64,000 nucleotides of DNA, from assembly GCA_033286805.1 (NCBI GenBank), contig GCA_033286805.1_4727.1. One strand, given 5' to 3'. This DNA comes from a phage. This document shows positions 15,801 through 55,883 of this stretch, piece after piece. A program made the translations under genes and the position numbers. Below the pieces are notes generated by a model. That model ran no database searches and was not told the DNA's origin. It was given only the letters and a program-made list of their open reading frames with translations. How positions within the stretch are numbered: the first letter of the stretch is position 1; each line of letters begins with the position of its first letter.

Positions 15801-16477
15801 GCGTTATACTCTTCATCCGCACCATCGTTGCCAGACGGCTGTAATGCAAGTGCTTGTTCAAGGATTTTGCGGTCAGCGGCATAAAGCGCCGACAGAGCTT
15901 GCGTTGCCGCAACCAAATCAACGATCGGCGACCAGAGCTGTGCGAGCTTACCTTCGTATTTCCGTACAGCGATAGCAAGGTCTTCTTTTACGTCTGGATG
16001 ATTGATTAAACCACCCAATGTTTCATGGATGGCAGAAAAACGTTCGGAATGTGCTTGTGTCAACGCGGTAAAATCGTCAACGTACGACGCATTTTCTTCA
16101 AGGCGTGTAAGTTCCTGCTCCAGGAGATCTTTTACTTGCGTAGCAGATGCGTTTCTCAACTGTTCACCGATAATCGCGATGGCTTTATCGACAACGCGAC
16201 AAGCTTCATTGAAGCCGGTTGTTGAAGGTAACTCGGTCCATAATGCCAGCGGCTTACCTTCCATTGCGTCAGGAAGGGAATATGACAACATTGCTAGTTG
16301 TTGACGTGATACCTGTTTGTCACGATGTAATGTTTCTTTCAACGCCAGAAGCTCATCAAGACCCACACTGCTAGGGATCGTGGGATGTGATACAGCGTTG
16401 ATGTTTTCTGCTAATGACTCAAGAACCAATAAACCATTTTCAGCGGAAGATAACCCTGCTTTAAGGTATTTGTTCAT
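12872..16477 (-). CDS. large putative virion/internal protein (1201 aa), paralog family
   Basis: ATG with GGAG SD; contains RIELVQEGFFGPILKLF, related to the motif in the 430-aa paralogs. Confidence 0.7.
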   Translation of the reverse strand: MNKYLKAGLSSAENGLLVLESLAENINAVSHPTIPSSVGLDELLALKETLHRDKQVSRQQLAMLSYSLPDAMEGKPLALWTELPSTTGFNEACRVVDKAIAIIGEQLRNASATQVKDLLEQELTRLEENASYVDDFTALTQAHSERFSAIHETLGGLINHPDVKEDLAIAVRKYEGKLAQLWSPIVDLVAATQALSALYAADRKILEQALALQPSGNDGADEEYNAITAVPSTDINVLMPYFDQAGNLIPTESVATPKEWDSKTLLTVLGTAVFASRIMRDVVNDYPETAALVKQLIERVDSAQADERLDNIGYLAVIARLQNARIVYQRMLLQCVRTVLTCAEVVAELVMSVSETATAVRSEQLWDKTQEEIEAADGYTRIELVQEGFFGPILKLFDKKGPNPLLDNKASSSWKYLENIQQQIAQTYANKSWVERNIHDKPVVSKRVARALSFDDGKVRMPMIVLKEAISAMRSVQKLVEAPAQARHAKLKQLEEKALRRVKAGENQYQVAKDTLAEAKKIKPLSTIPESSYPKWLGYKYSTFFNMLMLEEPVTDELPKLNVDDVVETGKFLTNDAAKALKEFTTADVFCGTGCDTELWNYDAFGDDDELYDQFYLHSKFNETTATDVYYNYLEALVNVCSATVEWLARQTSLKALKMEGYGIYTAESAWETLRRTMEYTVNILKRLVDWLVKSWRNGSAKAAIQQAEANNSQLTRAKDALLTEGTKKRLASLHTVGIQTIAKYAEVGTIWSGAFKGVTDNLGNVSALISSEVKELSNGRELDQDKLAKIREGLALAFEKGNFNKVLLGHDGITIDNLASEIHDYREELKDQFKESTNESIDVDKLIRYNDGCRKFLQGPITDARNKVSGHELDNLLTMLNSMIRQQASSPENKGLGALKNEIVNARDLAKAAVDILGIAQWLEVRAKRYINALSTVVDKANSEAAAVSGTLKQESFDLNEVVLSSTNYDVCSVAATSLAANRFRNTRDELRRHYNQALEAAFQVYNRAVYNRAVIGQHLLGVMPRFTGVFSNYPWTLGLDLQVSNPAALNAFCEKLSRSIELYGAGTADSITQAVALLDSTELCYAVDPNYEGESGNSSALATHMFEYRRLAKEALEPHSDFTTEEQRREWYTTFMDSSPSWEPDNTLPVVTEDVDPSLIWAFASLFCAALNAYIALRYGTDLKVYGWFSEQQNSSNVR

Positions 16478-21358: not shown

Positions 21359-23110
21359 ATGAGCGAACAAGAACGAAAACCTAAGAAGAAACTGCTCGGT
21401 ATTCAATGTCGACACATCAGCTATAACGAAGCGAACGATGGCAGCAAGAACGACCTCATGATCGCAAAAGAGATCATGTTCTTCGATGATAATACGCAAG
21501 CGACGAATCTTCGCTTCTTCGAGAATTACAAACGTCCGTTTTGGGTGACGGTAGAGAGTAAACGTAAGAACAAATATAAAAAGGAAAGCGAGAAGCTCTC
21601 GCATGTGCGTCGCTATGATGTCCGCCAAAGTGAACTGGTTGAAAAGATCAGTTCGGTGCTTTATAAAAGACGTGCTGATGACAACACCCGTCTACAGCAG
21701 CTTGCACGGAGTCCATACCTCTATGGCACGGACGTTAGCGCCAGCTGTTATTTAAAAACCCAGTACAACACAAAATGGCCGGAATACGTCGATAAATTAC
21801 CCGCTTCCATTGCCTGTTTCGATATCGAAACCGACGTTGTCCACGGGCACGGTAAGATCGTCTGTATGTCTATTACAATGGGATACAATGCGATACTTTG
21901 CTATACCAAGGACTTCGTTGGTCATATTCCGAATGCGATTGAGAAAACCCATGAGAAGATTCGATATTACCTGGCCGAACGTCTGAATACCAAAGAAGAT
22001 CCTCATGCGTTCGAAAAATATCATTACGATGTGCGAATCGTAGAAAGTCCGGCGCAAGCAGTCATCCAGTGCATGCAGAAGGTTCACGAATGGCAGCCGG
22101 ATTATCTCCTTGGCTGGAATATCGCGTTCGATATTCCGCGCATGCTCCAGGCACTGAACGAGGAAGGGTATCGTCCCGAGGATGTTTTCTCCGATCCTCG
22201 TGTACCACCTAAATATCGTATTGCTCGCTGGGTACCACCGAAGACAGACAAGGTATCTGCTTCAGGTCGTAAAACCAACCTTACCCTTGAGCAGACCTGG
22301 CCGATGTTTTATACGATGGCCACATACCAGGTTATGGATGCGATGTGCGGTTATAAGTTCGTTCGTTTAGGAAGACCGGATGAAGGACGCTATTCACTCG
22401 ATGCGGTGTTAGAGCGAAATAAATGCCATACGAAATTAAAAGCGATTCCTGGTACAGAGGGGTTCACGGAGCTTGCGTGGCACGAAGAGATGCAAACGAA
22501 CCATCAAATCGACTACGGCGTATATAACCTTTGGGATAACCAGGGTATCGAGGCGTTGGACCAGAAAACAAAAGACTATTCGATGACCATCCCTATTCGT
22601 TTGGCGGCGTCGGATTTGAAAGATTTCAGTTCTAACCCTAAACGTATCTGTGACAAACTTTTCTTCGTTTATCTTAACCGTGGGGAAGTCATGGGATGCA
22701 CTGCCGACGACATGACCCAGGAAGAAGATAAGTGGGTTATCTCACGAACCGGACATATCGTCACATTACCGTGCGATCTCATGGCGGACAACGGCATTCA
22801 TCTCTTCTGGGATATGCCGAACCTGAGAAGTTATATCCGTCTATTCGTTGCAGACCTCGACATTAGCAGTTCATACCCAAACGGGCAGATCCTGTTGAAT
22901 TTATCCAGAGCATGTGTTTTTCGTGAGCTCTCGCGCATTGAAGGCGTCTCTGACTATCAATTCAGGAAGTTAGGTATCAACTTTATTACCGGAGGTAAAA
23001 CGAACGCTGTAGACTTCTGTAGAATCGTTTATAAAGCACCATCGATGTTCGAACTCTTAGAACATTTCGATGCAACGCGTCCAAAAGGGGAAGCGCGGAC
23101 CATCGAATGA
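21359..23110 (+). CDS. family-B DNA polymerase N-terminal fragment (3'-5' exonuclease domain plus palm motif A)
   Basis: Exo I CFDIETD, Exo II GWNIAFD, Exo III YNLWD, motif A DLDISSSYP; ends ~75 aa after motif A with no motif B or C. No SD before the ATG. Confidence 0.6.
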   Translation: MSEQERKPKKKLLGIQCRHISYNEANDGSKNDLMIAKEIMFFDDNTQATNLRFFENYKRPFWVTVESKRKNKYKKESEKLSHVRRYDVRQSELVEKISSVLYKRRADDNTRLQQLARSPYLYGTDVSASCYLKTQYNTKWPEYVDKLPASIACFDIETDVVHGHGKIVCMSITMGYNAILCYTKDFVGHIPNAIEKTHEKIRYYLAERLNTKEDPHAFEKYHYDVRIVESPAQAVIQCMQKVHEWQPDYLLGWNIAFDIPRMLQALNEEGYRPEDVFSDPRVPPKYRIARWVPPKTDKVSASGRKTNLTLEQTWPMFYTMATYQVMDAMCGYKFVRLGRPDEGRYSLDAVLERNKCHTKLKAIPGTEGFTELAWHEEMQTNHQIDYGVYNLWDNQGIEALDQKTKDYSMTIPIRLAASDLKDFSSNPKRICDKLFFVYLNRGEVMGCTADDMTQEEDKWVISRTGHIVTLPCDLMADNGIHLFWDMPNLRSYIRLFVADLDISSSYPNGQILLNLSRACVFRELSRIEGVSDYQFRKLGINFITGGKTNAVDFCRIVYKAPSMFELLEHFDATRPKGEARTIE

Positions 23111-23190: not shown

Positions 23191-23208
23191 TGGAGGTTTT
23201 ATGTGTTT

Positions 23209-23655
23209 TTAATTATTGTTGGTGGGGTTATCGTCCGGTTTATATTCAATGCCGTAGGCGACGTAACGGTCTGTTGTATGGACGACAAGCGAGATAGGGA
23301 AATCATAATGCATAGTTTTGTCTCGAACGAGCTGAGTAAAGAGATCCATATAACGTATTAAGTCTTCACTGGTGTAATCAGAAGGGAAGAAGACATCGAT
23401 GGTTATTGAATCTTCATAGAGGCGTATGACCAACTTATCCAGAAGGTCGGCATATTGGTTAGCCGGGGTGACGTCCAGCTGACAGATGTCACGATCTCCT
23501 TCGTCTCGCGATACCCACATCGTGGTATCCTGTAATGAGGTTTCAAGGATCTCGAAAACACATTTTGCTGTAAGTCTTAGTTTATTTGTTACGTCATGGT
23601 TAGGTGAATAATGGTCACGGATGTTTTTCACTGCGTCTTTGATAGAGAAAGTCAT
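23209..23655 (-). CDS. small paralog-array protein (family member A)
   Basis: Start moved to the ATG with AGGAA SD (MTFSIKDAVKNI); C-terminal DFPISLVVH...YGIEYKPDD shared with the neighbouring paralogs. Confidence 0.6.
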   Translation of the reverse strand: MTFSIKDAVKNIRDHYSPNHDVTNKLRLTAKCVFEILETSLQDTTMWVSRDEGDRDICQLDVTPANQYADLLDKLVIRLYEDSITIDVFFPSDYTSEDLIRYMDLFTQLVRDKTMHYDFPISLVVHTTDRYVAYGIEYKPDDNPTNNN

Positions 23656-23686
23656 TGTTGCTGTTCCTGTTATAGTCAACATATAG

Positions 23687-23717
23687 CCCTTCCCTAGCCG
23701 TCAAGGCCGGGGAAGGG
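23687..23717. terminator. hairpin CCCTTCCC...GGGAAGGG
   Basis: 8-bp stem flanked by ATATAG and TATG; between paralog genes. Confidence 0.55.
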
Positions 23718-23732
23718 TATGTTTACGTGTAA

Positions 23733-24128
23733 TTACTTTTTGGCGTCCGTTGGTGATTCAGTATGTTTCTCGCTGCTGGTGTACCAGAGTAGGTATGTCG
23801 GGAAAAGATTAACCTCTAAGCTAAACGGGATATTATATTTTTCTTCCATTTTGCAGAGATGTTCTTTAAGTAAATCCCTTGCTTCTTTGTTACGGCGAGC
23901 GGAGTGCCAATGTAGTTCTTCGTTCTCCTTTACCAGTACTTCTACAATGATACGCTGCTCGTGAACCTCGGTTTTCACAATAGCAAGTAAATCGTTACTA
24001 TCGAAACGGGTAAAACGAATGTACGAACCAGGCGTTTTTTCTTGTTTAACGATATCGATCATAGTAGAAATGTGTGGGTGATCGATGTTGTCGTTAACTG
24101 CTTTAACGATGGAATCTACAACGCTCAT
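23733..24128 (-). CDS. small paralog-array protein (divergent member)
   Basis: N-terminus MSVVDSIVKAVN resembles the paralog N-termini; AAGGA SD. Confidence 0.55.
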   Translation of the reverse strand: MSVVDSIVKAVNDNIDHPHISTMIDIVKQEKTPGSYIRFTRFDSNDLLAIVKTEVHEQRIIVEVLVKENEELHWHSARRNKEARDLLKEHLCKMEEKYNIPFSLEVNLFPTYLLWYTSSEKHTESPTDAKK

Positions 24129-24168
24129 TTTTTTTTATCCTTAATGTTATCGGTTTAGAAATAATATT

Positions 24169-24933
24169 TTATTTGCTGTTATCTTTATCGACAGTTGTTA
24201 CCCATGATGGGAAAGCCGGATGGAAACAGAGCGTGAACGTAACCTTCGTATCGTATTTAAACGCACGGTCCACTAGCCGAGTATCGAACGTTTCCCTTAG
24301 ACCGTCATCATCGTTATCGATGACAGCCATATCCCTTAATATCCCAAGCACGTTAACGCCATCTGGTGTCTGGGTTACAACAAGTCGTCGTAATGGTCCG
24401 CATGTATAATCACGTACGTATCCTTTCTTCGGGTCCGATACTCTATTTAACGCATCGTGATTTTCGATGAATTCATCGGCAATACGAGTGATGTGTTCCC
24501 TTGCTTTATCTGGATCGTATTCTGCTAATAGTTCCTTCGTGTCGAATGTTATCGCGTTATTAGCATTCGATTCAGAAGGGAAACATAAAACTAAACGAAC
24601 AGGGTATTCGTATTGATCTGTTCTTGTTTCGAAAGCATTAGCTAAACACGGCTTGTATGCCTTTGCGTCGACATTGTCCAAACACGGATGCAATAATGCA
24701 TGAATAACGGCACCATCATCAGTTAAACCGAATTCCATAAATTGTGTTTCATCGGTGTCTGTTACGGTTTTCTGAAGGTACGCTTTACCGTTAACAATAT
24801 CGGTATCCCACATATCGTCGTTTAACGATTCTTCAAACTTATCGAATATATGGTTTACGAGATTGACGAGTTCATCAATACGGCACTGTTGGTTGAATTC
24901 GATTAATCGTTGAACTTTATCTTTGATAGACAT
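24169..24933 (-). CDS. small paralog-array protein, apparently duplicated domain (254 aa)
   Basis: MSIKDKVQRL N-terminus; internal YEYPVRLVLCFP and VTFTLCFHP repeats; AGGAG SD. Confidence 0.6.
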   Translation of the reverse strand: MSIKDKVQRLIEFNQQCRIDELVNLVNHIFDKFEESLNDDMWDTDIVNGKAYLQKTVTDTDETQFMEFGLTDDGAVIHALLHPCLDNVDAKAYKPCLANAFETRTDQYEYPVRLVLCFPSESNANNAITFDTKELLAEYDPDKAREHITRIADEFIENHDALNRVSDPKKGYVRDYTCGPLRRLVVTQTPDGVNVLGILRDMAVIDNDDDGLRETFDTRLVDRAFKYDTKVTFTLCFHPAFPSWVTTVDKDNSK

Positions 24934-24935
24934 GA

Positions 24936-25394
24936 TTACCCATTAGCTCCTTCTTCGTCTGGAGAGTATTCCATCGTGTAGAATTCATAACCGTCGGAAA
25001 ACTTGAGTGTTAATGTAATAGGGAAATCGCACGGCATAGCTGATTTCGTAAATGCGTTATTAGCAACATCAGCCAACCGACGTATAGCATCAGTCCCGCT
25101 GACGCTGAATGGTAGTTGTATGTTGATAAGGATGCGGTGCTTGTAAACATAGAAAACAACGGTGCTGTCAAGATAAACGCTATGGAACGGTATTGTTGGG
25201 ATGCGTTCCACGATGGTAAAATACGTCCCGTCATTATCGCTATGTCCCACCGACCAAATATCGGATTTGCGTAGATTTTGTTTGAGAGATTCGATACTTC
25301 GAGTGACGGTATCAGCAACAGGTGCGACGTAAGCGTCTTTATGCGAGTCGAAAAGTTCGTTGACGTTAGATTCGAATGAATACATTGTTGCCAT
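24936..25394 (-). CDS. small paralog-array protein
   Basis: C-terminal DFPITLTLKFSDGYEFYTMEYSPDEEG; GAGGT SD. Confidence 0.6.
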   Translation of the reverse strand: MATMYSFESNVNELFDSHKDAYVAPVADTVTRSIESLKQNLRKSDIWSVGHSDNDGTYFTIVERIPTIPFHSVYLDSTVVFYVYKHRILINIQLPFSVSGTDAIRRLADVANNAFTKSAMPCDFPITLTLKFSDGYEFYTMEYSPDEEGANG

Positions 25395-28566: not shown

Positions 28567-29868
28567 TTAACTAATATAAAGTTCAGGATCGTAAGGCGCT
28601 AACGATACACTGGCGTTATGCATTGCTTTCATCATAGTGTTCATGAAAACGTTGTTTACACCGGTGATCTCTGCCCCGATCGCGTCTGGGGTTGGAGCCA
28701 TCGCGTTACCGCAACAGGTAGCACAGTATTCCAATGGGCCTGCTTTACAACGTTGAGGATCACGTAACTTGATGGTTTGTCCTTCCAAGGAAGCAAGTAA
28801 TTCAGCATCAATAAGTTTAAGCGCCGCGCCGTCGATCATGTAACGACCGACAAGCAGCTTATCTTTGACATGATCGCGGTTTACCGTGAACAGAATATGT
28901 TCGTGGGTACCACAGTCGTCCATCGTGATTTTAAGGTTCTGTGTCGCACGCTGTGATTCTTTCGCCGTCTGTCCCGCTAAAGCGGTCAGTGCGCCACGTG
29001 AGAACGAACCTGCACGTGCACTGTTGTTGTACTCCGCCCAATGGTCGACACGCATCCCTTCAGCCAGGCTGTGTGTGATAACGTTACGTTTACCAGGGTC
29101 AACGAAGTCGGCTTCAACCCCCATCATGATGTGCGTTTTCTTTCGAGTATTACCGAAACTCTTGCCAGGGTTAATATAAAACCCTTCCGATTCATCACCC
29201 TTAAAGGATTCCTTATCCATTTTGGTTAGCGTGGCTTCGAGTTTGATCAGTTCTTCAGGTGTGAACTTACCTTCCTCTTGTAAGCGTGCTAACTCTTTAT
29301 CACGATAGGCAATAATATCATCATCGACCGTTAACGCTTTATCGCTCATCGATGGGACAATTAAACGGTTGATAGCGGTTAACGCACTGATATTGTTGGT
29401 GAATTTCTTCACTTCGCTTGCGTACAGCGGGCCAATAGGACGTTCGTTAGGATCGGGTATCCCCTCTTCGGGATCGTCCGCTACGCGTGGCGCAATCAGT
29501 GATTCCAGTGTACCGCTGGTCAACCGCCCTGCCTGATATTCAATCTGAATACCAAAAGCATCATAAAGGACGTACATATTGAACAACGCTTCACCGAAGG
29601 TTGTGGTGGTCGTATTCTTAACCGACGGTAGATCACCAGGTGCAAGCTCCAATGGCTCCCAGAAACTCAACAGGGGTTTTGTTGGCTCGGTTTCCCATTG
29701 GTGTTCTTCACCGTCGATGGTAACCGTAACGACGTTACCTTGACGACGTAATTTAGGCTGATACTTCTCAGCGCCGCCTTCCGTAAAAGCAAATGCGTCG
29801 TTAATCCATTCAAGATAACGGTAGTGCCCTTCACGCATCGCGTAAAGGAAATATTCACGAGGTGTCAT
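28567..29868 (-). CDS. putative multisubunit RNA polymerase beta-prime fragment
   Basis: By-eye match to the E. coli beta-prime region: bridge-helix-like SRGALTALAGQTAKE, then DCGT, then CKAGPLEYCATCCG (cf. C..CAHCYG zinc motif), then AIG...TMMKAMH (cf. GEAIGV...TMRTFH). No NADFDGD motif. AAGGAG SD. Confidence 0.45.
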   Translation of the reverse strand: MTPREYFLYAMREGHYRYLEWINDAFAFTEGGAEKYQPKLRRQGNVVTVTIDGEEHQWETEPTKPLLSFWEPLELAPGDLPSVKNTTTTTFGEALFNMYVLYDAFGIQIEYQAGRLTSGTLESLIAPRVADDPEEGIPDPNERPIGPLYASEVKKFTNNISALTAINRLIVPSMSDKALTVDDDIIAYRDKELARLQEEGKFTPEELIKLEATLTKMDKESFKGDESEGFYINPGKSFGNTRKKTHIMMGVEADFVDPGKRNVITHSLAEGMRVDHWAEYNNSARAGSFSRGALTALAGQTAKESQRATQNLKITMDDCGTHEHILFTVNRDHVKDKLLVGRYMIDGAALKLIDAELLASLEGQTIKLRDPQRCKAGPLEYCATCCGNAMAPTPDAIGAEITGVNNVFMNTMMKAMHNASVSLAPYDPELYIS

Positions 29869-29881
29869 GTAACAACTCCTT

Positions 29882-30754
29882 TTAAACCCGGGTCAGGTCA
29901 CCGTGACATGAAACGAACTCTGATAGCGCTCGGGTTGCTTCTTTGGATTCTTCAGCCATCGGGAAGTTTGCGGTAATAAGTTCTCGTAAGACAGGGACGA
30001 GTTCATTATCTTCGAGATCGGAAGCTAAGGCGAATGCAATCAGTTCTTGGGTGTATGCATACGGTTGCTGACGTAATGCAGTAAGCTGATCCCGACACTG
30101 CGACATTAGCAGGTCCAGTGGAACCGCTATCGTACCCCCTTCATCAATATACTGGCTGAACACCGGTGGGAACGCATCGCTGATGACACGAATACGTCGA
30201 CGAATATGATCCGGAATCTGGACGTTTTCTTCGTCAGCGACGTTTTCGCTATCTTTCTCCAGCTTCTTGGTCAGTACCTGTTGGATGCGTGGGAGCAAGC
30301 TTGAATGCACGAAACCGATTAATGGGGTTACGTTAACAGCATCAACGCCGTAAATATGACGCACGCATTCCGCCAGCGCTTCAGCTGTGGTGTAGTCTTC
30401 ATCTTCAACGATAGCGAGTAGAAAAGCGGTATCGTCGTGTGTTTCCAGGTCTAATAACGTAGACGCTAGTGCATGAAGATATTTCAGGCTATCCAGAGTT
30501 AGCTGTCCTTCGTTAATTCGGATCCCGAAGGCAAGCAATTGTTGTTTATAAAGTTCGATACATCCGTTTGTTAAAATGATATCTAATTCGTTTAAATCGT
30601 ATTGTTCCCCAGCACCTGATAACATCGTACTGCAGAACGTTTCCAGTTGTTCACATTTAAAATCTTGGTATAAACGATGCATGCAGTGCTGTAACAGCGT
30701 ACGCCTTGTTTCAGGGATCTTACCTTCTAACAAAGCCAAGACGGAATCAATCAT
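29882..30754 (-). CDS. hypothetical protein
   Basis: ORF-track start is GTG 30760; ATG at 30754 with GGAGTGG SD. Confidence 0.6.
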   Translation of the reverse strand: MIDSVLALLEGKIPETRRTLLQHCMHRLYQDFKCEQLETFCSTMLSGAGEQYDLNELDIILTNGCIELYKQQLLAFGIRINEGQLTLDSLKYLHALASTLLDLETHDDTAFLLAIVEDEDYTTAEALAECVRHIYGVDAVNVTPLIGFVHSSLLPRIQQVLTKKLEKDSENVADEENVQIPDHIRRRIRVISDAFPPVFSQYIDEGGTIAVPLDLLMSQCRDQLTALRQQPYAYTQELIAFALASDLEDNELVPVLRELITANFPMAEESKEATRALSEFVSCHGDLTRV

Positions 30755-30850
30755 ATCCACTCCGATGCGGTAAATGTCTACTAGCTCTCATAATCTATTG
30801 AAGAAACTACCAGCTTACGCCAACTTAGATTAATCAGGAGTAACCATCCC

Positions 30851-31324
30851 ATGCCAGTTTCATCCAAACCAAGAAAAAAATCCGTAGGAAACCCTAAAGC
30901 TCAGGAAACAACAGCGATTCGTTGGGACGAGTTACGTGAACCTATCGAAAACTGCGAATTGTTGTTGGGCACCCTGGGTGCGGCTATTTACCAAGCGACG
31001 CAACCCTGTCGTTTACGATTAACCCAAAACAAACGTGATGAGTTCGTTGCGTTATCAACAAGCACGAATAAAGATCTGACCGAACTTCAAACCGAGTTGA
31101 CGACGATCAAGAACTCCATTACGCCGATGTACGGTAAAGAAGTTGATGAACAAAGTATTCTGTTACAGTACAACTACGGGATGTCGTTAATGAACATCCT
31201 GGAACGCGCATCCGATATTCTGCGTCCTGACGTTGCACGCCTAAGCCAACTGCGTGTCGAAGGGATGGAGAACCAGATCCGATTCGCTAACAGTGTTAAA
31301 TCTCAAGGAGCCACCGAAGCATGA
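30851..31324 (+). CDS. hypothetical protein
   Basis: 157-aa ORF, AGGAG SD; stop overlaps the next start (ATGA). Confidence 0.6.
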   Translation: MPVSSKPRKKSVGNPKAQETTAIRWDELREPIENCELLLGTLGAAIYQATQPCRLRLTQNKRDEFVALSTSTNKDLTELQTELTTIKNSITPMYGKEVDEQSILLQYNYGMSLMNILERASDILRPDVARLSQLRVEGMENQIRFANSVKSQGATEA

Positions 31325-33006
31325 GCGAACAAGAAAAAGAAGTCGTGACGAATCAGGAAGCCGTCGAGCGTTCAGAGTCGTCCGTTGAAACCACGATTCC
31401 GGCAAGTTCCGAGCCTGTTGGTTCCACACAGCAGGAAAGTAAAGACGAAGTCAGCACGACTAAAGAAGATGTAGCGGCTCCAGAAGCAACCCGTGAAGAA
31501 GAACCATCACATCCACCGCTGGTTGATTTCTCGAAAGCAACGATACGTTTCCAATGCGAAGACATTCGTCCTAAGAGCCCGAAGAAAACAAAACGCCAGC
31601 CGCTGGTGTTACCGCTGTATTCTCCGCGTGTACAAACAGCGTATTACAAGGAATACATCAACGAAGCAATGGATACCGTACAAGCCATTGTCGCTCAACG
31701 CGGTAAACCTTCGGACGAGCAATTTGATAAATTCAGTAAAGCGGTAGTGCAATCGGTTGCTGATGGGCAATACCAACCGCGTGGCCCAGCTCACGATCGC
31801 GCCTTGGAACGTAAGGGCAGTCAGTGGACTAACGTACCCGTAGACTCATCGGGTGTTGGTCGCGTTATTCCTGGCATTCCACAACCGAATCATATTCCTG
31901 ATGATGTCGAAGCGCCGCTGACAGGAACCGATGCGATCTATTTTGCAATCCGCAATACGAAATCGGGCGCACCTGCGGTAATGCCGTTATGGCATAGCGG
32001 TATTAAGCTGCAGTTCAATCCACCGTCAAATGAACGTGTCGCAATTATGCATGAACGTATTGCACGCGATAAAATCCTGGGTGGACGTGATAGTACCGGT
32101 TTCCTGTTTTCGGCAACCTCGATTATCACCATGAAGCACGCAATCGAATTAGCATTAGAATGCTGCTACATGGCCAACGTACCGAACCTGGATATCCAGC
32201 GTTTGAAAGACATTATTCCGGTTACCGATGTTCCAGCACTGTTGTTGAACGTGCTGGTAACCATGTATCCGTACGGATATCCTTACGTACAGACCTGCTA
32301 TCAGAATCCAGAAACCTGCGACTATCGTGTTGAAGATACCGTAAGCTTTGCGAAGCTCTATCAAGTTGACAACAGTGCGATTACCAAACGTATGCGACAG
32401 ATCATGACCGAAGGTCCGGTCATGACCGATGAACTTTTGCGTGAGTATGCAAACGAACTGGGTGAAACAAACTCCCGTACGCTGGATCTGTCCGACAACG
32501 GTTCTGTTATCATTGAACTTGAAGTACCGAAGATCTCACGACAAATCGCCATGGGCGAGCGCTGGTTAAGCGATACCCTGGAAGATCTGCGTGATATTCT
32601 ATCGCGTCCGTCAATGACCGAAGAAGAGCGCGATCGTGTTATTCGTGAACGTCAGTTCTATAGCTGGATGCGTCAGTATGATGCATGGATCAAATCGATG
32701 CATGTGTCAGTAAACGGCACCATGCGTCGTGTAAGCGATGCGGATACAGCAACGGTATTAGCGCAGCTGTCTCGTGATAGTGATCTTCGTGAACGCTATA
32801 TCGATGGGTTGATGCAATTCATCGGTGATTCGACGATTGCGCTCGCAGCAATGCCTGCCTGGAAATGTCCGAAATGTAATGCCGATATTGCTGACAATCT
32901 GCGTGACCAGAAATACTACGATCTGATTGCTTTGGATGTACCCCAGCTTTTTTTTACCCTAAACTCCGTCCAATCTCTTCAGGAGGGGATGGACGCGGTA
33001 TTCTAA
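31321..33006 (+). CDS. hypothetical protein with acidic Ser/Thr/Glu-rich N-terminus (561 aa)
   Basis: AAGGAG SD; a T8 run at 32948-32955 lies near the 3' end. Confidence 0.65.
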   Translation: MSEQEKEVVTNQEAVERSESSVETTIPASSEPVGSTQQESKDEVSTTKEDVAAPEATREEEPSHPPLVDFSKATIRFQCEDIRPKSPKKTKRQPLVLPLYSPRVQTAYYKEYINEAMDTVQAIVAQRGKPSDEQFDKFSKAVVQSVADGQYQPRGPAHDRALERKGSQWTNVPVDSSGVGRVIPGIPQPNHIPDDVEAPLTGTDAIYFAIRNTKSGAPAVMPLWHSGIKLQFNPPSNERVAIMHERIARDKILGGRDSTGFLFSATSIITMKHAIELALECCYMANVPNLDIQRLKDIIPVTDVPALLLNVLVTMYPYGYPYVQTCYQNPETCDYRVEDTVSFAKLYQVDNSAITKRMRQIMTEGPVMTDELLREYANELGETNSRTLDLSDNGSVIIELEVPKISRQIAMGERWLSDTLEDLRDILSRPSMTEEERDRVIRERQFYSWMRQYDAWIKSMHVSVNGTMRRVSDADTATVLAQLSRDSDLRERYIDGLMQFIGDSTIALAAMPAWKCPKCNADIADNLRDQKYYDLIALDVPQLFFTLNSVQSLQEGMDAVF

Positions 33007-33068: not shown

Positions 33069-33428
33069 TTGCTGTTAGCGCGTAAAGGCGATGGTGGCAT
33101 GAAATTGAACATCGAAATGGGTATTGCGTACGATACCATGTTTGGTTTGTACGATCGGGTTAACGACTGGACGCCGTTGAAATGGGTGGCTCAGCACCCC
33201 GCTGAAGATCCCTGGGACAGATTAGGGATTAAACCCTTAATCGAGGATTATGTCCGATTCGGTATTAAAGAGTTCATGACGCTGGATGCGTTTTTAAAAG
33301 CACCGTATCCTTACGCGCAAACGGTACTCAAAATCGCACAAGACGAACTGCGGAAACGTAGTGCGGTACTGGACGACGATGAGGACAAGTTACGACGAGA
33401 AGAAGAACGTTTACGAAACGGAAAATAA
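33069..33428 (+). CDS. hypothetical protein; possibly the C-terminal continuation of 31321-33006 after a -1 shift
   Basis: This frame is open from 32907 with no ATG/GTG/TTG until TTG 33069 and ATG 33099; translation upstream of 33069 looks protein-like. Confidence 0.45.
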   Translation: MLLARKGDGGMKLNIEMGIAYDTMFGLYDRVNDWTPLKWVAQHPAEDPWDRLGIKPLIEDYVRFGIKEFMTLDAFLKAPYPYAQTVLKIAQDELRKRSAVLDDDEDKLRREEERLRNGK

Positions 33429-33429
33429 A

Positions 33430-33939
33430 ATGGCAAGATTTACCAGTTTGATTGGATTGGACATTTGGGAAACACCGGCTGACGTTCGGGTTATTCCTGT
33501 CAACACCGTCGGTGTGATGGGACGTGGTCTTGCCAAGCAGGCAGCCGATCGTGTGCCCGGTCTTCTTGAAGCGTACCGTAAGCAATGTCAAGATGGGTTT
33601 AAGGTGGGCGAAGTCGTGTCATATCAGCATGGCGAGAACGATCAGCTCACTTACGTGTTGTTTCCATCAAAATCGGATTGGCGTGAAAGAACACGACGCG
33701 AGTATATCGTTAACGGTTTACTGGCGTTAAAAGCATGGTTATTGGAGCTTCAGTTCGAAAGAGATGGCTTCTCATACCACCGTCCGGCTGAACCGTTGAT
33801 TGTCGCAATTCCTCCGGTTGGTTCTGGTTGCGGTAATATCGGTTACGGACAATCCGAAACAATCCAGCCTCAGTGGGTACGCGCACAAATCAAACAGTAT
33901 CTTGCCACCGTGCCGAACGTTCATTTCTACTTGTTCTAA
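33430..33939 (+). CDS. macrodomain protein, DarG/TARG1-like (putative ADP-ribosyl hydrolase)
   Basis: IPVNTVGVMGRGLAKQ (cf. VNTVNxVGVMGKGIA), FPSKSDWRER with candidate catalytic Lys, AIPPVGSGCGNIGYG. ATG 2 nt after the upstream stop; start moved from ORF-track 33361. Confidence 0.6.
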   Translation: MARFTSLIGLDIWETPADVRVIPVNTVGVMGRGLAKQAADRVPGLLEAYRKQCQDGFKVGEVVSYQHGENDQLTYVLFPSKSDWRERTRREYIVNGLLALKAWLLELQFERDGFSYHRPAEPLIVAIPPVGSGCGNIGYGQSETIQPQWVRAQIKQYLATVPNVHFYLF

Positions 33940-33955
33940 CGCAACGGTAACATAA

Positions 33956-33987
33956 CCCTCTCCCAACCCAGCAGGGAAGGGAGAGGG
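33956..33987. terminator. hairpin element CCCTCTCCC-AACCCAGCAGGGAA-GGGAGAGGG (bidirectional)
   Basis: Perfect stem between convergent genes (33939 and 34005); flanks CATAA and CTTATG. Confidence 0.7.
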
Positions 33988-34004
33988 CTTATGCTGTTAT
34001 GCTA

Positions 34005-34979: not shown

Positions 34980-37592
34980 TTAAGCGTCCGGCGTAAAATC
35001 AAAAGGAATGTCCGTACGAATGATATCGTAACGTTTTCCTAGGAAATAAAACTCTTCGGGAACCTGACCAGGAATAATGCTATCGCCGATGAACTGCGGA
35101 TACGCCCAGATGTACTGAGTGAGTCCTTCGAACATATCCAGGTTATTTGCATGGTTACCCATGATACGTTTCCAGAGTTCGCGTTTATACGGTGTTTTAA
35201 CATCGAATCCATAAAGCGGTGCAAGATCTTCACCAGGAACAAATCCCAGGTAATAATGGATCTGACTAACCGGGAAACCAAGCGTATCTCGCGGAATGGT
35301 GATCGCTTGCTCTGCCTTGGTGACATGCGTCTCAATAATCCAGTCGTAGCACTCCGAATAGAACCGGTCGAATTTCTCTGGGTTATACCACGCTTTGGGA
35401 AGATTGAGTTTCTCCGTGAACGCGTTCGACATGATCGTCGGCAAGAACGGAAGAACACCGGTTTTGATCTGCGTGTATTTCGATTTTACCCGATTAACCA
35501 AATTCCAGCAACTGTATCCTAACTGTTCGTTACAAAACTCAACGTAGAGATCGTAGTCACCACCGGATAATGGGTTGTTAATATCACCGATGTCTGCGGC
35601 ATATTTGTTGGGATATCGGTTATTGAAAGCCAGTTTGGTTTGGTAATCGTAGATACACGGTTTGTTGTTCGCTGTATTGATCCACCACCAGGGTTCACCT
35701 ACTTGCACACAAATGTCCTGGACATGGGGGTAGATGATATCAGCAAACGCGGTTAACACATCCCCTAACCACGCCATCGCCTGTTGGTTACATGGAGACA
35801 GCAACCAGGACGGTGGTGTGTATCCGGTTGCTGCGATGTTTCCTTCCCAATCCTGCTGCGCCCACTCGAACGGGCAGGCTGTACTCATCAATTCGTAACT
35901 TAAACTGATGGTGACAGAGAAATGGTGTTTTGCGGCGTATGCAGCGAAAGCTTCATGCCATGCGATACAGGGTGGATTTAATACATCCGTGGTGTTCACC
36001 AGTAACTTACCTGCACTTGGCGTCCAGACAGTATCGTAGAAATGCGACATTCCAACATAGTGCACTAATTCATCCTGATATCCAGCATAAACCAGGTTTT
36101 CAAATACACGCTCTGGCGTGATGTTGTAATGGTCATCATAAGCGGTTATCGCACGAAGTTCGTGTGGCGTACAATGATGGCGATTAACCGTCATTTCCTG
36201 ATACACCCCATCGATAGGAAGAATCTCGAGGGTTAAACCAAGATCGATCGGTGTTTCCAGATAGGTCGTTTCTGTAGCACCTTCTTTATAATGTCGAGAA
36301 CTCATGCTGAACATCAACGACGTTACCGATTCGAGTTCGATAGGCTCGTCAGCATAGAACCCCGCCATTGCGTCATTGAAATCGATCGTTACGATTGCGC
36401 TTCTACCGTCTTCAGAGACATCGGTGGCGTATCGGGTTAATGAGATATACTGACGGCTATCGTCTTTGTGTACGACGGTTAAAACCGGCGGGTTTTCGGT
36501 ATCTGCAAAGTTACGCTGATCGCCAGTAAACGTGATCTTCGCTTTAAAGATCAAACCGAATAACGACGTCATGGGATCATACGCAATACAACCGTGATCC
36601 AGCGTATCCGTTGTCCGCCATTCTATCCCGACCAACCCGTTAGCGGTATGGCATCGCATATACGCATTAAGGACCATGTCTTCACTGACAACCGCGAAGT
36701 TCTCTGTTGACTGACCGTTGATAATCCAATACATCGGTTGCCAGAGGTTACGCGTACCTTTTGCGTAGCGGTAGGTTGGCGCGCCTTTAGGGTTGCCGTT
36801 ATTAAGATGGAATACAGCAGTACCTTGATAATGGTCGTTCGTATTAATCGGAACACTGTAAGCATCACCGAGATCCGTACGTTCCACCTTCTTGACTGTT
36901 GCGTTTTCAAATAACCCACGCAGCGCGGGTAAACCGATATCATCAGGCGCGTTTTCTCGACGAATCGCATCCGCGATGCGGTGGGCTAGGGCGGGGTAAA
37001 TGGTCTCACCCTGTTGTAGGTTTGCAAGACCTACAAAGCGATCGGGAGCGATGCCAGCAATCAATAACTCAACATCACCCTTCGTTCTATCGTCATTAAG
37101 ATATTTCAGTCCGGTAAGGTCAAGATGCTGAATAAGCGACAACAGGTTGTATTTACGGTTTTCAACAGTTAGTACAAGATCGCCTGCCCAAACCAAACTT
37201 CCCTCATCCGCTGTTACTTTAACGGATTGTCGGCCTGTGGTAGACGTTGTTGTCGTTTTATTTAATTGTCCTTGTAGGAAGTCGGTTGCGAGGTCAAAGG
37301 CAATACCGTAACGGTCAGCGACCGCTTGCATGATTTCACGTAACTGGGTATCTTCTTCAATGATAATCTTGACAGGTATTCCCAAGAACGCTTTAGCGAG
37401 GTCTCGTTTAACCAACGAGACGAATACGGATTTGTAGTATCGGCTTCCATCTTTCCCTTTAAAAAGAATGGAGGTTGTTTCGGGTGCCGATAGAACACGT
37501 GCAAATACAACATCGTCGGAAGTAAGAGAAAGTCCGTTTTTCTCGTTGACCAATCTTAGTATTTCATTTTGCGCGGTTTCATGTAACTTCAT
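34980..37592 (-). CDS. putative tail fibre/tailspike-like protein (870 aa) with shared N-terminal domain
   Basis: N-terminal ~110 aa (RDLAKAFLGIPVKI) paralogous to the 43326-43853 and 47669-48499 products. Confidence 0.55.
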   Translation of the reverse strand: MKLHETAQNEILRLVNEKNGLSLTSDDVVFARVLSAPETTSILFKGKDGSRYYKSVFVSLVKRDLAKAFLGIPVKIIIEEDTQLREIMQAVADRYGIAFDLATDFLQGQLNKTTTTSTTGRQSVKVTADEGSLVWAGDLVLTVENRKYNLLSLIQHLDLTGLKYLNDDRTKGDVELLIAGIAPDRFVGLANLQQGETIYPALAHRIADAIRRENAPDDIGLPALRGLFENATVKKVERTDLGDAYSVPINTNDHYQGTAVFHLNNGNPKGAPTYRYAKGTRNLWQPMYWIINGQSTENFAVVSEDMVLNAYMRCHTANGLVGIEWRTTDTLDHGCIAYDPMTSLFGLIFKAKITFTGDQRNFADTENPPVLTVVHKDDSRQYISLTRYATDVSEDGRSAIVTIDFNDAMAGFYADEPIELESVTSLMFSMSSRHYKEGATETTYLETPIDLGLTLEILPIDGVYQEMTVNRHHCTPHELRAITAYDDHYNITPERVFENLVYAGYQDELVHYVGMSHFYDTVWTPSAGKLLVNTTDVLNPPCIAWHEAFAAYAAKHHFSVTISLSYELMSTACPFEWAQQDWEGNIAATGYTPPSWLLSPCNQQAMAWLGDVLTAFADIIYPHVQDICVQVGEPWWWINTANNKPCIYDYQTKLAFNNRYPNKYAADIGDINNPLSGGDYDLYVEFCNEQLGYSCWNLVNRVKSKYTQIKTGVLPFLPTIMSNAFTEKLNLPKAWYNPEKFDRFYSECYDWIIETHVTKAEQAITIPRDTLGFPVSQIHYYLGFVPGEDLAPLYGFDVKTPYKRELWKRIMGNHANNLDMFEGLTQYIWAYPQFIGDSIIPGQVPEEFYFLGKRYDIIRTDIPFDFTPDA

Positions 37593-39441: not shown

Positions 39442-42400
39442 TACATAAACTCCTCGATGATGCAAATCCCATTAGCACCACGCCCACCAGGCTTAGCGGT
39501 TCCTGAGTAAGAGTTATCGTAAGCACCGCCACCACCCGAACCAGGCGCGAGGCCGTTATGGGCGGTGCCAACACCAGCGCGACCGCCACCGCCCCAATAT
39601 GACGCACCCCCACATCCACCGACGGCAAGAGTACCGGCTTGTCCATCGTTACCGTCTCCGCCCGGAATGCGTATATCCCCGGTAGTAGGTACGCCCCCAT
39701 AGCCACCGCCAGTGTTTGTGACAGTTGTTTTTCCTGCGCCTTGCCCGCCGGGAGCAGTTAGCAGGGATGCAAATTTACTATCCCCACCCCCGTTCCCAGA
39801 CGTCGCCCCAGAGCCACCGGAACCACCAGAACCAATTACAACAGAATAACTAGCAGCTGTTACCGTTATAACCGAAATTACTGTTCCGCCAGCGCCTCCC
39901 CCAGCGCCAAAAAACGTTTCGCTGTTGGAATAAGCCTGACAGCCACCGCCGCCACCGCCGCCACCGGTTATTGTTACTCTAATCCGTTTTGTTCCTTGTG
40001 TTGGGGTGTACGTCCCTGACGATGTGAAAACACGCATGTTCAGTAAACGTCCGACATATCCGCTAGAATCGGCTAAACCAAGATCTTTAGCTGCTAACGT
40101 GATATTAGCTGTACCGTCAAACGGTTTACCGTTAATCGTGCGCGCGGTCTGCAACTTCGTCGCCGTTGCTGCGTTTCCTGATGTGTTCTGGTTCCCCGCA
40201 GCGTTAACACCCGGCAGATTGATGTTCGCACTACCGTCGAAAGATACCCCACCAATGGTGCGGGCTGTTTTCAGTTTTGTCGCCGTGGCAGCATTACCGG
40301 TTGTGTCTTGGTTACCGGTGGTGTTTACCCCAGGCAGGTTGATATTTGCCGTTCCGTTAAATGAAACACCGCCAATCGTCCTTGCTGTTTGAAGCCTCGT
40401 CGCGGTAGCGGCGTTACCCGTCGTGTTCTGGTTTCCGGTTGTGTTCACACCAGGGATACTATCTTTCGAGGTGTAGATCTGTGCCCATTCTGACCAGTTC
40501 GAATCGGCCGCATCACGACGTGAACGTAGGTAAGCTGGAGCGTATGCACCTGAGGTACCTGACCACCCAATGAGGATTTCACCTTCACCGACCGATGAAG
40601 CCCCTTTAAGATGAATGACGTTACCATAAGCGGTGGGATACCCGTTATTGTACGCTTCATACATCTGGATGCCCGCATTGCTGCCCTGAGCCGTGTTAGC
40701 TAATGCCGTAACACGACCTTTGGAGGCGAGAGCGGTAATACTGAAGCTAATATCCTTAGTACCGTCAAAGGCGACCCCATTAATCTTCCGTGCTGTTTGG
40801 AGTTTCGTGGCGGTAGCCGCATTACCAGAGGTACTCTGATTACCTGCTTTGTTCACGCCAGGCAAATCAATGTTGGCTGTTCCATCAAAGGACACGCCCC
40901 CTATGGTTCTCGCTGTCTGGAGTTTTGTTGCTGAGCCAGCGTTTCCGGAAGTGCTTTGATTACCTGCCGCGTTGACACCTGGTAGGTTAATGCTAGCAGA
41001 GCCATCAAAAGAAACTCCACCGATCGTGATTGGTGTTTTCAATTTCGTGGCTGTCGCAGCATTACCCGTCGTATTCTGATTGCCAGCCGCATTAACGCCT
41101 GGTAATGCGATATCGGTCGTACCATCGAACGCGACACCACCGATTTTACGGGCAGTCTGTAGCTTGGTCGCTGTAGCCGCGTTGCCGCTGGTATTTTGCG
41201 TGCCCGCTTTATTTACGCCTGGTAAATCAATGTTCGCAGTACCATCAAAAGAAACACCCCCGATGGTTCTCGCGGTCTCAAGTTTGGTTGCGCTTCCTGC
41301 GTTTCCGCTGGTGTCTTGGTTTCCCGCTGCATCAACACCCGGTAGACTGATGCTGGCCGAACCATCGAAACTCACACCACCGATCGTAACAGCGGTTTTC
41401 AATTTCGTAGCGGTTGCAGCGTTCCCCGTGGTATTTTGGTTACCTGTCGCATTCACACCCGGTAATGCAATATCCGCTGTTCCGTCAAAGGCAACGCCAC
41501 CGATTCTACGTGCAGTTTGTAGCTTGGTTGCACTAGCAGCGTTACCGCTGGTATTCTGGGTGCCAGCTTTGTTAACACCAGGGAGATCGATGTTAGCAGA
41601 ACCATCGAAGCTAACGCCACCTATCGTTCTTGCAGTAGCAAGTTTAGCTGCTGTAGCAGCGGCGTTACCGACTTTTAACCATTCGCCCCATGGACCATCC
41701 TGGCCGTTCCATGATGCCGTTAAACTACGTACGTAAATATTGCCGGTACATACAGTGTAACGTTGCGTTCCACCGAATTGCCCGGTTGGGAGCACTTCAA
41801 TGTAACCTGCGGCATTTGCTTCAGGGAAATTGTGGGCGACGTCCGCGTTCGTTGATACTGGTTTAGACCAAATACCCACAGACGCTTCAACCGGACCGTA
41901 CGTATTCAGATTTGCGTCGGTGGGAAGTTGTCCTCGAAAACGCTGGAATTGTGTTGCCGATAACCCCAACGTTGTTTGCATGCTTTCAATGCTGGATTGC
42001 TGAAGTAACGTCCGTGCTGTCGACGTAATCACGGTAAGCGCAACTTTATTAACACCGGTGAAATACGGGAGTTTGTCTGCTGATGTCGCTAAACCTGAAA
42101 AGGCGGTCAGTAATGCGTTAAGGGGCTGCTTCCCAGCTAACGCATTTGTTACCGTCGTTGCGAAATTAGGATCACTTCCTATAGCTCGAGCCAGCTTATT
42201 AAGCGTATTTAGCGTCGCTGGTGACGAGTCGATCAGCGCCGTGATCGCACGCATCACAAATTCCGTGTTGGCTATCTGTCGACTGCTATTGTTAACTGCT
42301 GCGGTGGGCGCTGCTGGCGTACCAGTGAATACAGGGCTATTAAGATCCGCCTTGAGGGCGATGAGACGTTTAAGCGCTTCAACATCAACTTTCAGGTTTT

Positions 42401-49948: not shown

Positions 49949-50065
49949 TTCTATTCCTCAAATAAAGATTGTCTTTTAACGCGACATGATTACAAGTACA
50001 CAGGTTACTGGATTTCTGTAAAAGTTAATTTTCGTAAACTAAAAGAAAATGTATCCGTGTTTCTT

Positions 50066-55201: not shown

Positions 55202-55283
55202 GATTACTGTCCTTTTGAAATATGTTTAGATAAGGAGGATTTACCGGGTATTAAAAAGTTATTTGGTATGTAATGTTTTTTTT

Positions 55284-55883
55284 TTACTTAGGTTCCAGTA
55301 TTGGTCCGAACAACCAGAATGTCAGACGCTGGTAAACCTGTTCGATGACTGCGGCTTCTGTTTGCTCTTCTAGCGCTTTCCCTTTCTTATGTTGTATTTC
55401 TGGCGGGATGTCGCCGTTGTAAACATACCCTGCTGAGAAGTCCCACGCCAGCCGTTTACCGAAAGTAGGTAAGAACACCTCTTCGAATCGGAACGCTTTC
55501 GAATTCCAATGAAGCAGCTGATCGGATTCAACATGTAAAGCTTTATTACGTTTGCTTGGCATGTTTCCGAAGTACTGAACGATAGCTGATTTCATAACCC
55601 GATCTGCGAAGTCTTTGGCTTCGACCTCATCGAGGGGAGGCAGACGATGCGATAGATTCAGCTTGCGTTGTTCAACATCTATCTTACGCATCGCTTTAAT
55701 CAAATCACCAGGAACGATTTTACCCTTATGGCCTTCCTGTCGGTGTATGAAACACCCCTGGAATAGCACGCAAAGTTCTTGAGGTGCTGTACTTTCCATT
55801 CGTCCGTAAGCAACGATCACCGAACGACGACGATCAATAACTTCGCGGATAAACCGCGGCTCAGTAATACTCACCACTGTCAT
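55284..55883 (-). CDS. hypothetical protein
   Basis: 199-aa ORF, AGAGGG SD. Confidence 0.6.
   Translation of the reverse strand: MTVVSITEPRFIREVIDRRRSVIVAYGRMESTAPQELCVLFQGCFIHRQEGHKGKIVPGDLIKAMRKIDVEQRKLNLSHRLPPLDEVEAKDFADRVMKSAIVQYFGNMPSKRNKALHVESDQLLHWNSKAFRFEEVFLPTFGKRLAWDFSAGYVYNGDIPPEIQHKKGKALEEQTEAAVIEQVYQRLTFWLFGPILEPK

Follow-up and report, generated by a model that had tools for sequence, protein, structure and literature searches.

A stand-alone DarG-class macrodomain of a Goslar-like nucleus-forming jumbo phage is very probably an AdfM-type counter-defence enzyme against DarTG2

The gene on the plus strand at positions 33430 to 33939 of the 64-kb stretch of phage DNA analyzed here (referred to as the window) is an adfM-like gene. 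It encodes a DarG2-type macrodomain of 169 aa that stands alone and is orthologous to gp83 of Escherichia phage vB_EcoM_Goslar. Its product is very probably an AdfM-type enzyme with which a Goslar-like nucleus-forming jumbo phage would counter the DarTG2 defense. The AdfM ("anti-DarT factor macro") family was named by Morgan et al. (Cell Rep 2026; PMC13309987), with PhiKZ gp104, PhiPA3 gp108, Asesino gp217, and Goslar gp83 as members; Goslar gp83 (YP_009820768.1) is included in the alignment of their Figure 1B, and their experiments used other members. The finding is already known: AdfM has been in print since 2026, with Goslar gp83, nearly identical to the window protein, among its named members. 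Judged by its sequence, the window protein corresponds to the description of AdfM, namely, a stand-alone DarG2-like macrodomain of a chimallivirus. The present analysis established the fold and family of this protein, its catalytic residues, and its orphan status, and it also showed that the gene is conserved and under purifying selection.

A role in counter-defense against DarT had been proposed for this gene in the first-pass annotation of the window. That role has been demonstrated for the homologs PhiKZ gp104 and PhiPA3 gp108 (PMC13309987) and would extend to the window protein by analogy. PhiKZ gp104 strips ADP-ribose from a DarT2-modified TNTC oligonucleotide, an activity impaired by the substitution N23A, and completely relieves DarT2 toxicity in E. 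coli (PMC13309987). Deletion mutants of PhiKZ and PhiPA3 have a lower titer on DarTG2 hosts, the loss amounting to three to six logs in PhiKZ, and after deletion of adfM the phage DNA is ADP-ribosylated in such hosts and its replication and packaging are impaired (PMC13309987). GFP fusions of AdfM from Asesino, PhiKZ, and PhiPA3 go to the phage nucleus, approximately half of chimalliviruses encode an AdfM-type gene, and the phage proteins align closest to bacterial DarG2 macrodomains, which are active only on DNA ADP-ribosylation (PMC13309987). AdfM shows that the phage nucleus is an incomplete shield against DNA-targeting defenses and needs an imported repair enzyme as a backup, a point already in print (2026) for PhiKZ and PhiPA3.

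The identity of the phage was established from the nucleotide sequence. A 3.6-kb query around adfM shared 96.8% identity with Escherichia phage vB_EcoM_Goslar, and a search of the phage collection with this query found no match besides Goslar. The window, which covers 64 kb out of a genome of ∼237 kb, is collinear with Goslar from ∼59.4 to 124 kb at ∼91 to 97% nucleotide identity; the collinearity is broken by a few indels and one divergent tail-fiber segment. Homologs of PhiKZ gp80 (the virion RNA polymerase [vRNAP] beta subunit) and of PhiKZ gp77 are encoded in the window. Goslar itself is a chimallivirus, a jumbo phage that forms a nucleus (PMC9891218, PMC11087766), and on the basis of the identity and collinearity the window comes from an E. 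coli jumbo phage of the nucleus-forming, Goslar-like kind. That the phage is a nucleus-forming chimallivirus had been missed at the first reading. Because it is one, the enzyme would be expected to be imported selectively and to act within the phage nucleus.

The open reading frame list and the translation confirmed the 169-aa gene, which begins with an ATG at 33430 and ends with a TAA at 33937 to 33939 on the plus strand. The ATG lies 1 nt past the stop codon of the 119-aa gene upstream. Three lines of evidence back this start: the N terminus MA-x-F is common to the window protein, PhiKZ, PhiPA3, Psa21, and metagenomic homologs in the alignment; the stop-then-ATG junction is identical in a metagenomic relative (L009) whose macrodomain protein is 46% identical; and 169-aa records titled "macro domain-containing protein" are present in other NCBI assemblies. 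The RefSeq model of Goslar gp083 (= gp83) has 186 aa, begins within the upstream gene, and is probably overlong. At the amino acid level, the window protein and Goslar gp83 are 98.2% identical. The two genes differ by 8 synonymous and 3 nonsynonymous substitutions, which corresponds to a dN/dS of ∼0.11 from small counts, and the amino acid changes (D40E, Q54R, and K58T) include none within the conserved motifs (0/3). Small as these counts are, adfM is a constrained gene under purifying selection.

The protein belongs to the DarG/TARG1 macrodomain class, to which it had been assigned at the first pass from two motifs, and Pfam, PADLOC, NCBIfam, phmmer, and Foldseek agree on this classification. 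Pfam Macro (PF01661) matched residues 23 to 141 with 25.4 bits (gathering score, 22; E = 1.4e-5); a Pfam DUF7242 match of 17.8 bits, under its cutoff of 27, was set aside. The PADLOC DarG model was matched over profile positions 8 to 143 of 329 (E = 3.9e-22), and the NCBIfam model antitoxin_DarG (NF048014) was matched over positions 7 to 146 of 338 (E = 7.5e-23) with 81.3 bits, a score that does not reach the full-length equivalog cutoff of 250 bits. Among PDB sequences searched with phmmer, the best match was the Thermus aquaticus DarG macrodomain (5m31/5m3e, E = 6e-15), and the Mycobacterium tuberculosis DarG macrodomain (5m3i, E = 2e-11) and 7omu were also found.

The predicted structure leads to the same class. 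An AlphaFold2 model built from 14 sequences was confident (pLDDT 86.5, pTM 0.85), with blocks of low pLDDT at residues 111 to 120 and 131 to 140. Foldseek found 211 matches in the PDB at an E value of ≤1e-3, and the best 50 of the 211 are almost all macrodomains or designs on a macrodomain scaffold. The T. aquaticus DarG macrodomain 5m3e came first (E = 2.2e-14, TM 0.87, rmsd 1.9 Å), followed by the T. aquaticus and M. tuberculosis DarG macrodomains 5m31 and 5m3i (E = 3.3e-14 and 5.7e-13), the T. africanus DarTG fusion 7omu (E = 5e-12), and human TARG1 (4j5s and related structures, E ∼1e-9). Among the best 50 of the 211 matches, DarG/DarTG structures occupy ranks 1 to 4 and TARG1 structures occupy ranks 5 to 11. 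A search of the viral structures in BFVD gave nothing more specific than "macrodomain."

Both motifs recognized at the first pass are present in the protein and contain the residues expected of an active enzyme of this class. They were examined in a 16-sequence alignment that included the window protein, Goslar gp83, five Goslar-type metagenomic relatives, PhiKZ gp104 (as the translation of the construct printed in PMC13309987), PhiPA3 gp108, the Psa21, Noxifer, and SPN3US homologs, and the T. aquaticus and M. tuberculosis DarG segments. Residues V24, N25, G28, M30, G31, G33, A35, Y49, P79, and K81 are invariant in this alignment. The glycine-rich motif VNTVGVMGRGLAKQ (residues 24 to 37; 33499 to 33540, plus strand) includes the predicted catalytic asparagine, N25, which aligns with N22 of the T. 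aquaticus DarG and N23 of PhiKZ gp104, and the putative first glycine-rich ADP-ribose-binding loop. The segment FPSKSDWR (residues 78 to 85; 33661 to 33684, plus strand) is the predicted catalytic lysine motif of the DarG/TARG1 class: K81, invariant in 16/16 sequences, aligns with K80 of the T. aquaticus DarG and K78 of PhiKZ gp104, and F78 and W84 are nearly invariant. The Asn/Lys pair (N23 and K78 in PhiKZ, N22 and K80 in T. aquaticus) is marked as active-site residues in PMC13309987. The structural search and the alignment of the lysine, which the first-pass annotation had itself named as possible refutations, both came out in favor of its reading. The motif-based call of an anti-DarT macrodomain of the DarG class was upheld, and such calls are thereby validated.

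A third segment, AIPPVGSGCGNIGY (residues 126 to 139; 33805 to 33846, plus strand), comprises the second glycine-rich loop and leads into a Goslar-clade insertion. In a second alignment (A2), P128, G131, G133, and G135 are invariant among database homologs. The insertion GQSETIQPQ, directly after the second glycine loop, is confined to Goslar-type sequences in the 16-sequence alignment. There are two Goslar-clade-specific insertions, at residues ∼108 to 122 and ∼136 to 146, and they are low-confidence regions of the AlphaFold2 model.

The insertions and the relationship to TARG1 raise the question of the substrate. It is improbable that the target is something other than the mark left by DarT2, such as Glu/Asp-linked ADP-ribose on proteins, nucleic acid ends (cf. 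TARG1), or ADP-ribosylated mRNA, and a target of that kind would still make the protein a counter-defense or repair enzyme. TARG1 is the next structural class after DarG, but DarG macrodomains clearly outscore it in both sequence and structure. The insertions near the second binding loop could alter the reach of the Goslar-clade enzymes, and the window protein is no nearer to PhiKZ AdfM than to many uncharacterized stand-alone macrodomains; however, the phage proteins are closest to the DNA-specific DarG2 macrodomains (PMC13309987), and the assayed members of the family act on T-ADPr DNA. Points counted against the assignment to AdfM include the clade-specific, low-confidence insertions, one of them right behind the second phosphate-binding loop, and the ability of TARG1-class enzymes to use other ADP-ribosylated substrates.

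It is very improbable that the protein is a housekeeping macrodomain like Poa1p, YmdB, or MacroD, processing free ADP-ribose derivatives (ADP-ribose-1''-phosphate or O-acetyl-ADP-ribose), although this is the role that existing labels convey: the RefSeq note on Goslar gp083 cites cd02901 Macro_Poa1p_like, phrog_335 is labeled "phosphatase," and the annotation of several phage homologs reads Appr-1-p processing protein. Among the best 50 of the 211 Foldseek matches, the first Poa1p structure (6lfr, E = 1e-7) was at rank 18 and YmdB (5cb5, E = 2e-6) was at rank 50; their E values trail those of DarG by five to eight orders of magnitude, and the rmsd for Poa1p is at least 5 Å. The NCBIfam ADP-ribose-binding-protein model (PRK00431) reached 12.8 bits versus 81 bits for DarG, and the protein carries the DarG/TARG1-class lysine motif, FP(S/T)K, which is invariant in the alignment. 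The RefSeq labels ("Macro_Poa1p_like" and the 186-aa model) undersell and slightly misannotate the gene.

The window protein stops at residue 169, and the PADLOC and NCBIfam profiles indicate that the C-terminal DarT-binding domain of DarG is absent. No darT gene lies next to adfM, and no DarT or other significant defense match was found in the operon neighbors by PADLOC, NCBIfam, or the annotation. Without the C-terminal domain and without a neighboring darT, the protein is an orphan antitoxin-like enzyme. An exhaustive search of representatives yielded 2891 of them at an E value of ≤1e-3, mostly stand-alone proteins of 140 to 180 aa; this wider family is visible only by that search, since the word-index protein search gave 15 matches. 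The closer relatives include full-length DarGs, two of which scored 273.9 bits (P0017) and 327.4 bits (P0067) against the NCBIfam cutoff of 250. Some phages carry their own ADP-ribosyltransferases, and only 64 kb of the genome is covered, yet it is hardly credible that the protein is an antidote to, or regulator of, such a transferase of the phage itself or a noncatalytic ADP-ribose reader, as the operon neighbors have no DarT or defense-type match, the annotation of the Goslar interval corresponding to the window lists no transferase, and the intact catalytic residues and purifying selection argue against a mere reader.

The genomic setting of adfM was analyzed for partners of the putative counter-defense enzyme. 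As the first-pass annotation stated, adfM is the last gene of a four-gene plus-strand operon (30851 to 31324, 31321 to 33006, 33069 to 33428, and 33430 to 33939), and minus-strand genes flank the block on each side. The annotation had described the other three products as unrecognizable, which does not hold for the second and third. The second gene (31321 to 33006, plus strand) encodes a 561-aa conserved chimallivirus protein that matches phrog_4585 (E = 9.5e-68) and is a homolog of PhiKZ gp77 (tblastn E = 1e-32); homologs occur in 158 jumbo-phage records. The gp77-like gene is divergent from the adjoining vRNAP beta subunit gene in PhiKZ, RAY, and Goslar alike. The third gene (33069 to 33428, plus strand) encodes a 119-aa Goslar gp082-like protein that matches phrog_12109 (E = 8.6e-9) and has homologs in Noxifer and RAY. 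The first gene (30851 to 31324, plus strand) overlaps the second by 4 nt, and its 157-aa product is Goslar gp080-like, with 100% identity to that protein. It sits at the position of PhiKZ gp078, and similarity to gp078 was not detected. Packaging of the protein in the virion was considered because of the late and virion-gene context; the main text of the Goslar virion preprint does not mention gp80 to gp83.

A role for the 561-aa neighbor as PicA/Imp1, the AdfM importer, was considered and rejected: the protein is a homolog of PhiKZ gp77, not gp69. The suspicion had arisen since both genes adjoin RNA polymerase subunit genes. The PicA protein of Goslar is gp174 (PMC11087766).

Downstream of adfM, a strong hairpin (33941 to 34002) lies in the 65-nt gap between the convergent adfM (plus strand) and gp084-like (minus strand) genes. 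Its minimum free energy is −32.8 kcal/mol (z = −5.3), and 0/200 shuffled sequences fold as well. A terminator is annotated at the corresponding position in Goslar, and the hairpin is probably a bidirectional terminator. A scan of 29.5 to 35.5 kb for sigma-70 promoters and terminators found such sites to be no commoner than in shuffled sequence; the hairpin was missed by the terminator scan because no T-run stands behind it.

Comparison with other phages separates adfM from the genes that precede it. In RAY, the homolog of the 119-aa gene directly follows the gp77-like (gp081-like) gene and has no macrodomain gene behind it, and in Noxifer the homolog is ∼36 kb away from the macrodomain gene. 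Judged by this gene order, the conserved association of the 119-aa gene is with the 561-aa gene rather than with adfM. The metagenomic relative L009 keeps the four-gene layout, the divergent vRNAP beta gene, and a ∼290-aa gene, with proteins 46 to 64% identical to those of the window (46% for the 157-aa protein and 47% for the 119-aa protein). In the PhiKZ-type phages, AdfM is encoded after the gp98-gp102 block of virion genes, and in SPN3US it is found at another location again. When the 5 kb on either side of the macrodomain gene were compared in PhiPA3, Noxifer, Psa21, and SPN3US, the macrodomain alone matched the window, and synteny of AdfM or a conserved partner gene across chimalliviruses was rejected on these grounds. 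Considering the RAY gene pair that lacks a macrodomain and the differing locations of AdfM in the PhiKZ-type phages and SPN3US, adfM gives the impression of an accessory gene that the Goslar clade has at the end of a conserved operon and that forms no functional module with its neighbors.

The differing locations are accompanied by sequence divergence. The window protein is only ∼31% identical to PhiKZ gp104, and many DarG-like proteins, stand-alone or bacterial, match it at least as well as PhiKZ-type AdfM does (∼74 bits). A neighbor-joining distance tree was built from 65 sequences chosen by similarity to the query (143 columns, 200 bootstraps). The Goslar-type and PhiKZ-type proteins formed an exclusive group in 0/200 bootstraps of this poorly resolved tree (monophyly of the Goslar type, 0.42; of the PhiKZ type, 0.07), and the smallest split with both types held approximately half of the 65-sequence set, DarG-length proteins included. 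This result is compatible with repeated capture and with fast divergence alike and is not decisive. An independent capture of a DarG macrodomain by the Goslar-type lineage, separate from the PhiKZ-type and SPN3US-type genes, is a tentative proposal that we consider rather unlikely. If it is true, nucleus-forming phages took up orphan DarG domains repeatedly, with insertion at differing places in the genome, and a species-specific import surface evolved anew each time, possibly including the insertions at ∼108 to 122 and ∼136 to 146. A related possibility is that the Goslar-clade insertions adapt the enzyme to the DarT variants of enterobacteria or to a different ADP-ribosylated substrate.

Because the window protein does not group exclusively with PhiKZ-type AdfM, the transfer of function from the characterized homologs rests on the shared active site of the DarG class and not on close orthology. 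By analogy with those homologs, we infer enzymatic activity, toxin neutralization, nuclear localization, and a DarTG2-dependent phenotype for the window protein. If the gene product is an AdfM-type counter-defense enzyme, infection of an E. coli, Salmonella, or Shigella host carrying DarTG2 would free the DarT2 toxin, which would ADP-ribosylate thymidines in single-stranded phage DNA, with a small amount of the toxin reaching the DNA despite the phage nucleus. DarTG that ADP-ribosylates single-stranded DNA is reported to occur in E. coli (EPEC) (PMC7003065). The phage does not avoid the target motif of DarT2: TNTC was counted 1299 times on the plus strand of the window versus 1236 ± 35 expected. 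Avoidance was therefore rejected, and DarT2 targets are plentiful in the phage DNA. With its two glycine-rich loops, the macrodomain would hold the ADP-ribose, and with the DarG catalytic pair N25 and K81 it would hydrolyze the thymidine-ribose bond; the repaired DNA would again be fit for replication and packaging.

The proposed mechanism would also place the enzyme inside the phage nucleus. Import of PhiKZ gp104 is PicA dependent and uses a species-specific surface at residues 77 to 95 that includes the catalytic lysine loop (PMC11087766). The import-recognition stretch is RERTRREYIVNG in the window protein versus RNPSQISFIERG in PhiKZ and differs at variable positions. As the stretch is species specific and different here, nuclear import of the window protein is an assumption, one that is plausible by analogy with PhiKZ, PhiPA3, and Asesino; the protein would probably enter by the PicA pathway via a species-specific surface of its own.

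Among known systems, the closest is AdfM itself. Like PhiKZ gp104, PhiPA3 gp108, Asesino gp217, and Goslar gp83, the window protein is a stand-alone macrodomain of ∼160 to 170 aa from a nucleus-forming jumbo phage, with the DarG2-like Asn and Lys active site and both glycine loops. It departs from PhiKZ gp104 in sequence, as given above, and in the extra insertion after the second glycine loop, and its gene follows the gp77-like/gp082-like pair, whereas the PhiKZ gene follows the gp98-gp102 virion block. DarG of DarTG2 (5M31, 5M3E, 5M3I; NF048014) has the same macrodomain subclass and catalytic residues and is the best match to the window protein in sequence and structure; unlike DarG, the window protein is phage encoded and has neither the C-terminal DarT-binding domain nor an adjacent darT. 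Human TARG1/OARD1 (4J5Q/R/S) is likewise of the lysine-based class and is the second-best structural family (TM ∼0.8), but it is only 16 to 20% identical to the window protein, with an rmsd of 3.4 to 3.7 Å. TARG1 is a eukaryotic enzyme that acts mainly on protein-linked ADP-ribose. AdfN of T4-like phages, which is directed against DarTG1, and AdfB of ICP1 resemble AdfM in being orphan antitoxin-like phage factors that neutralize DarTG (PMC11825919, PMC11481870). They differ from it in kind: AdfN has a NADAR fold instead of a macrodomain and undoes the modifications that DarT1 makes on DNA (PMC11825919), and AdfB, also not a macrodomain, appears to block DarT via direct interaction (PMC11481870).

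The start annotated for the macrodomain gene in the Goslar reference differs from the start assigned in the window. In RefSeq, gp083 (NC_048170.1 92868-93428) is modeled as a 186-aa protein that equals window 33379-33939, with a start located 51 nt upstream of the ATG at window 33430 and within gp082. The ATG at 33430 is favored by N-terminal conservation and by NCBI records that are 169 aa long. The CDD label for gp083, "Macro_Poa1p_like," is less specific than the DarG-class assignment.

Copies that are identical or 97% identical to the protein encoded at 33430-33939 (protein clusters P0001 and P0002) were found in many isolate assemblies, on contigs of about 234 to 247 kb. The assemblies bear the labels Shigella flexneri, E. 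coli (O157 among them), and Salmonella enterica of several serovars. Coassembly of Goslar-like phage genomes with enterobacterial isolates is therefore frequent, the route being carriage or contamination. Separately, the representative library includes a 318-aa protein (P0039) in which a DarG-type macrodomain (residues 6 to 153) is fused to a NADAR domain (residues 167 to 303); a single polypeptide thus unites the type of hydrolase that undoes DarT2 modification with the type that undoes DarT1 modification. Near the macrodomain gene, the 870-aa product of window 34980-37592 (minus strand) is the homolog of Goslar gp86. A 2026 preprint (10.64898/2026.04.21.720040) places gp86 in the chimallivirus-only DUF7941 family, for which carbohydrate-binding or glycoside-hydrolase domains are predicted, and regards it as a candidate for host recognition.

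Several segments of the window are replaced, diverged, or missing relative to Goslar. By blastn, no counterpart in Goslar was detected for window 23199-24950 (1.75 kb in place of 1.16 kb, near gp070-071) or for 14507-16179 (1.67 kb in place of 0.86 kb, within the large gp064-like gene). The tail-fiber gene segment at 40443-42055 (Goslar gp090, P1 gpS-like) has just 65 to 84% identity to Goslar, to which it aligns at more than one offset; the segment contains internal repeats and is diverging, which would be expected of a gene that determines host range. The NUMOD1/HNH homing-endonuclease gene gp069, which directly follows the DNA polymerase gene in Goslar, is missing at window 22854-22874, where 20 nt correspond to 1.8 kb in Goslar (81185-82967), a presence/absence difference typical of mobile homing endonucleases. 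The hypothetical genes gp096, gp108, and gp120 are likewise absent from the window phage, because too little space is left for them at 50030-50060, 55233-55284, and 61024, respectively.

The 561-aa protein encoded at window 31321-33006 carries a CxxC near its C-terminus (WKCPKCN), and its zinc-finger match is weak and below threshold. Its gene belongs to a divergent arrangement (window 28570-30760 and 31321-33006) that is conserved in the Goslar clade as well as in PhiKZ and RAY. One strand carries the gene for the vRNAP beta subunit together with an ∼290-aa gene, and the opposite strand carries an ∼155-aa gene and an ∼540- to 560-aa gene. The two divergent halves are gp80/gp79 and gp78/gp77 in PhiKZ and gp270/gp269 and gp268/gp267 in RAY.
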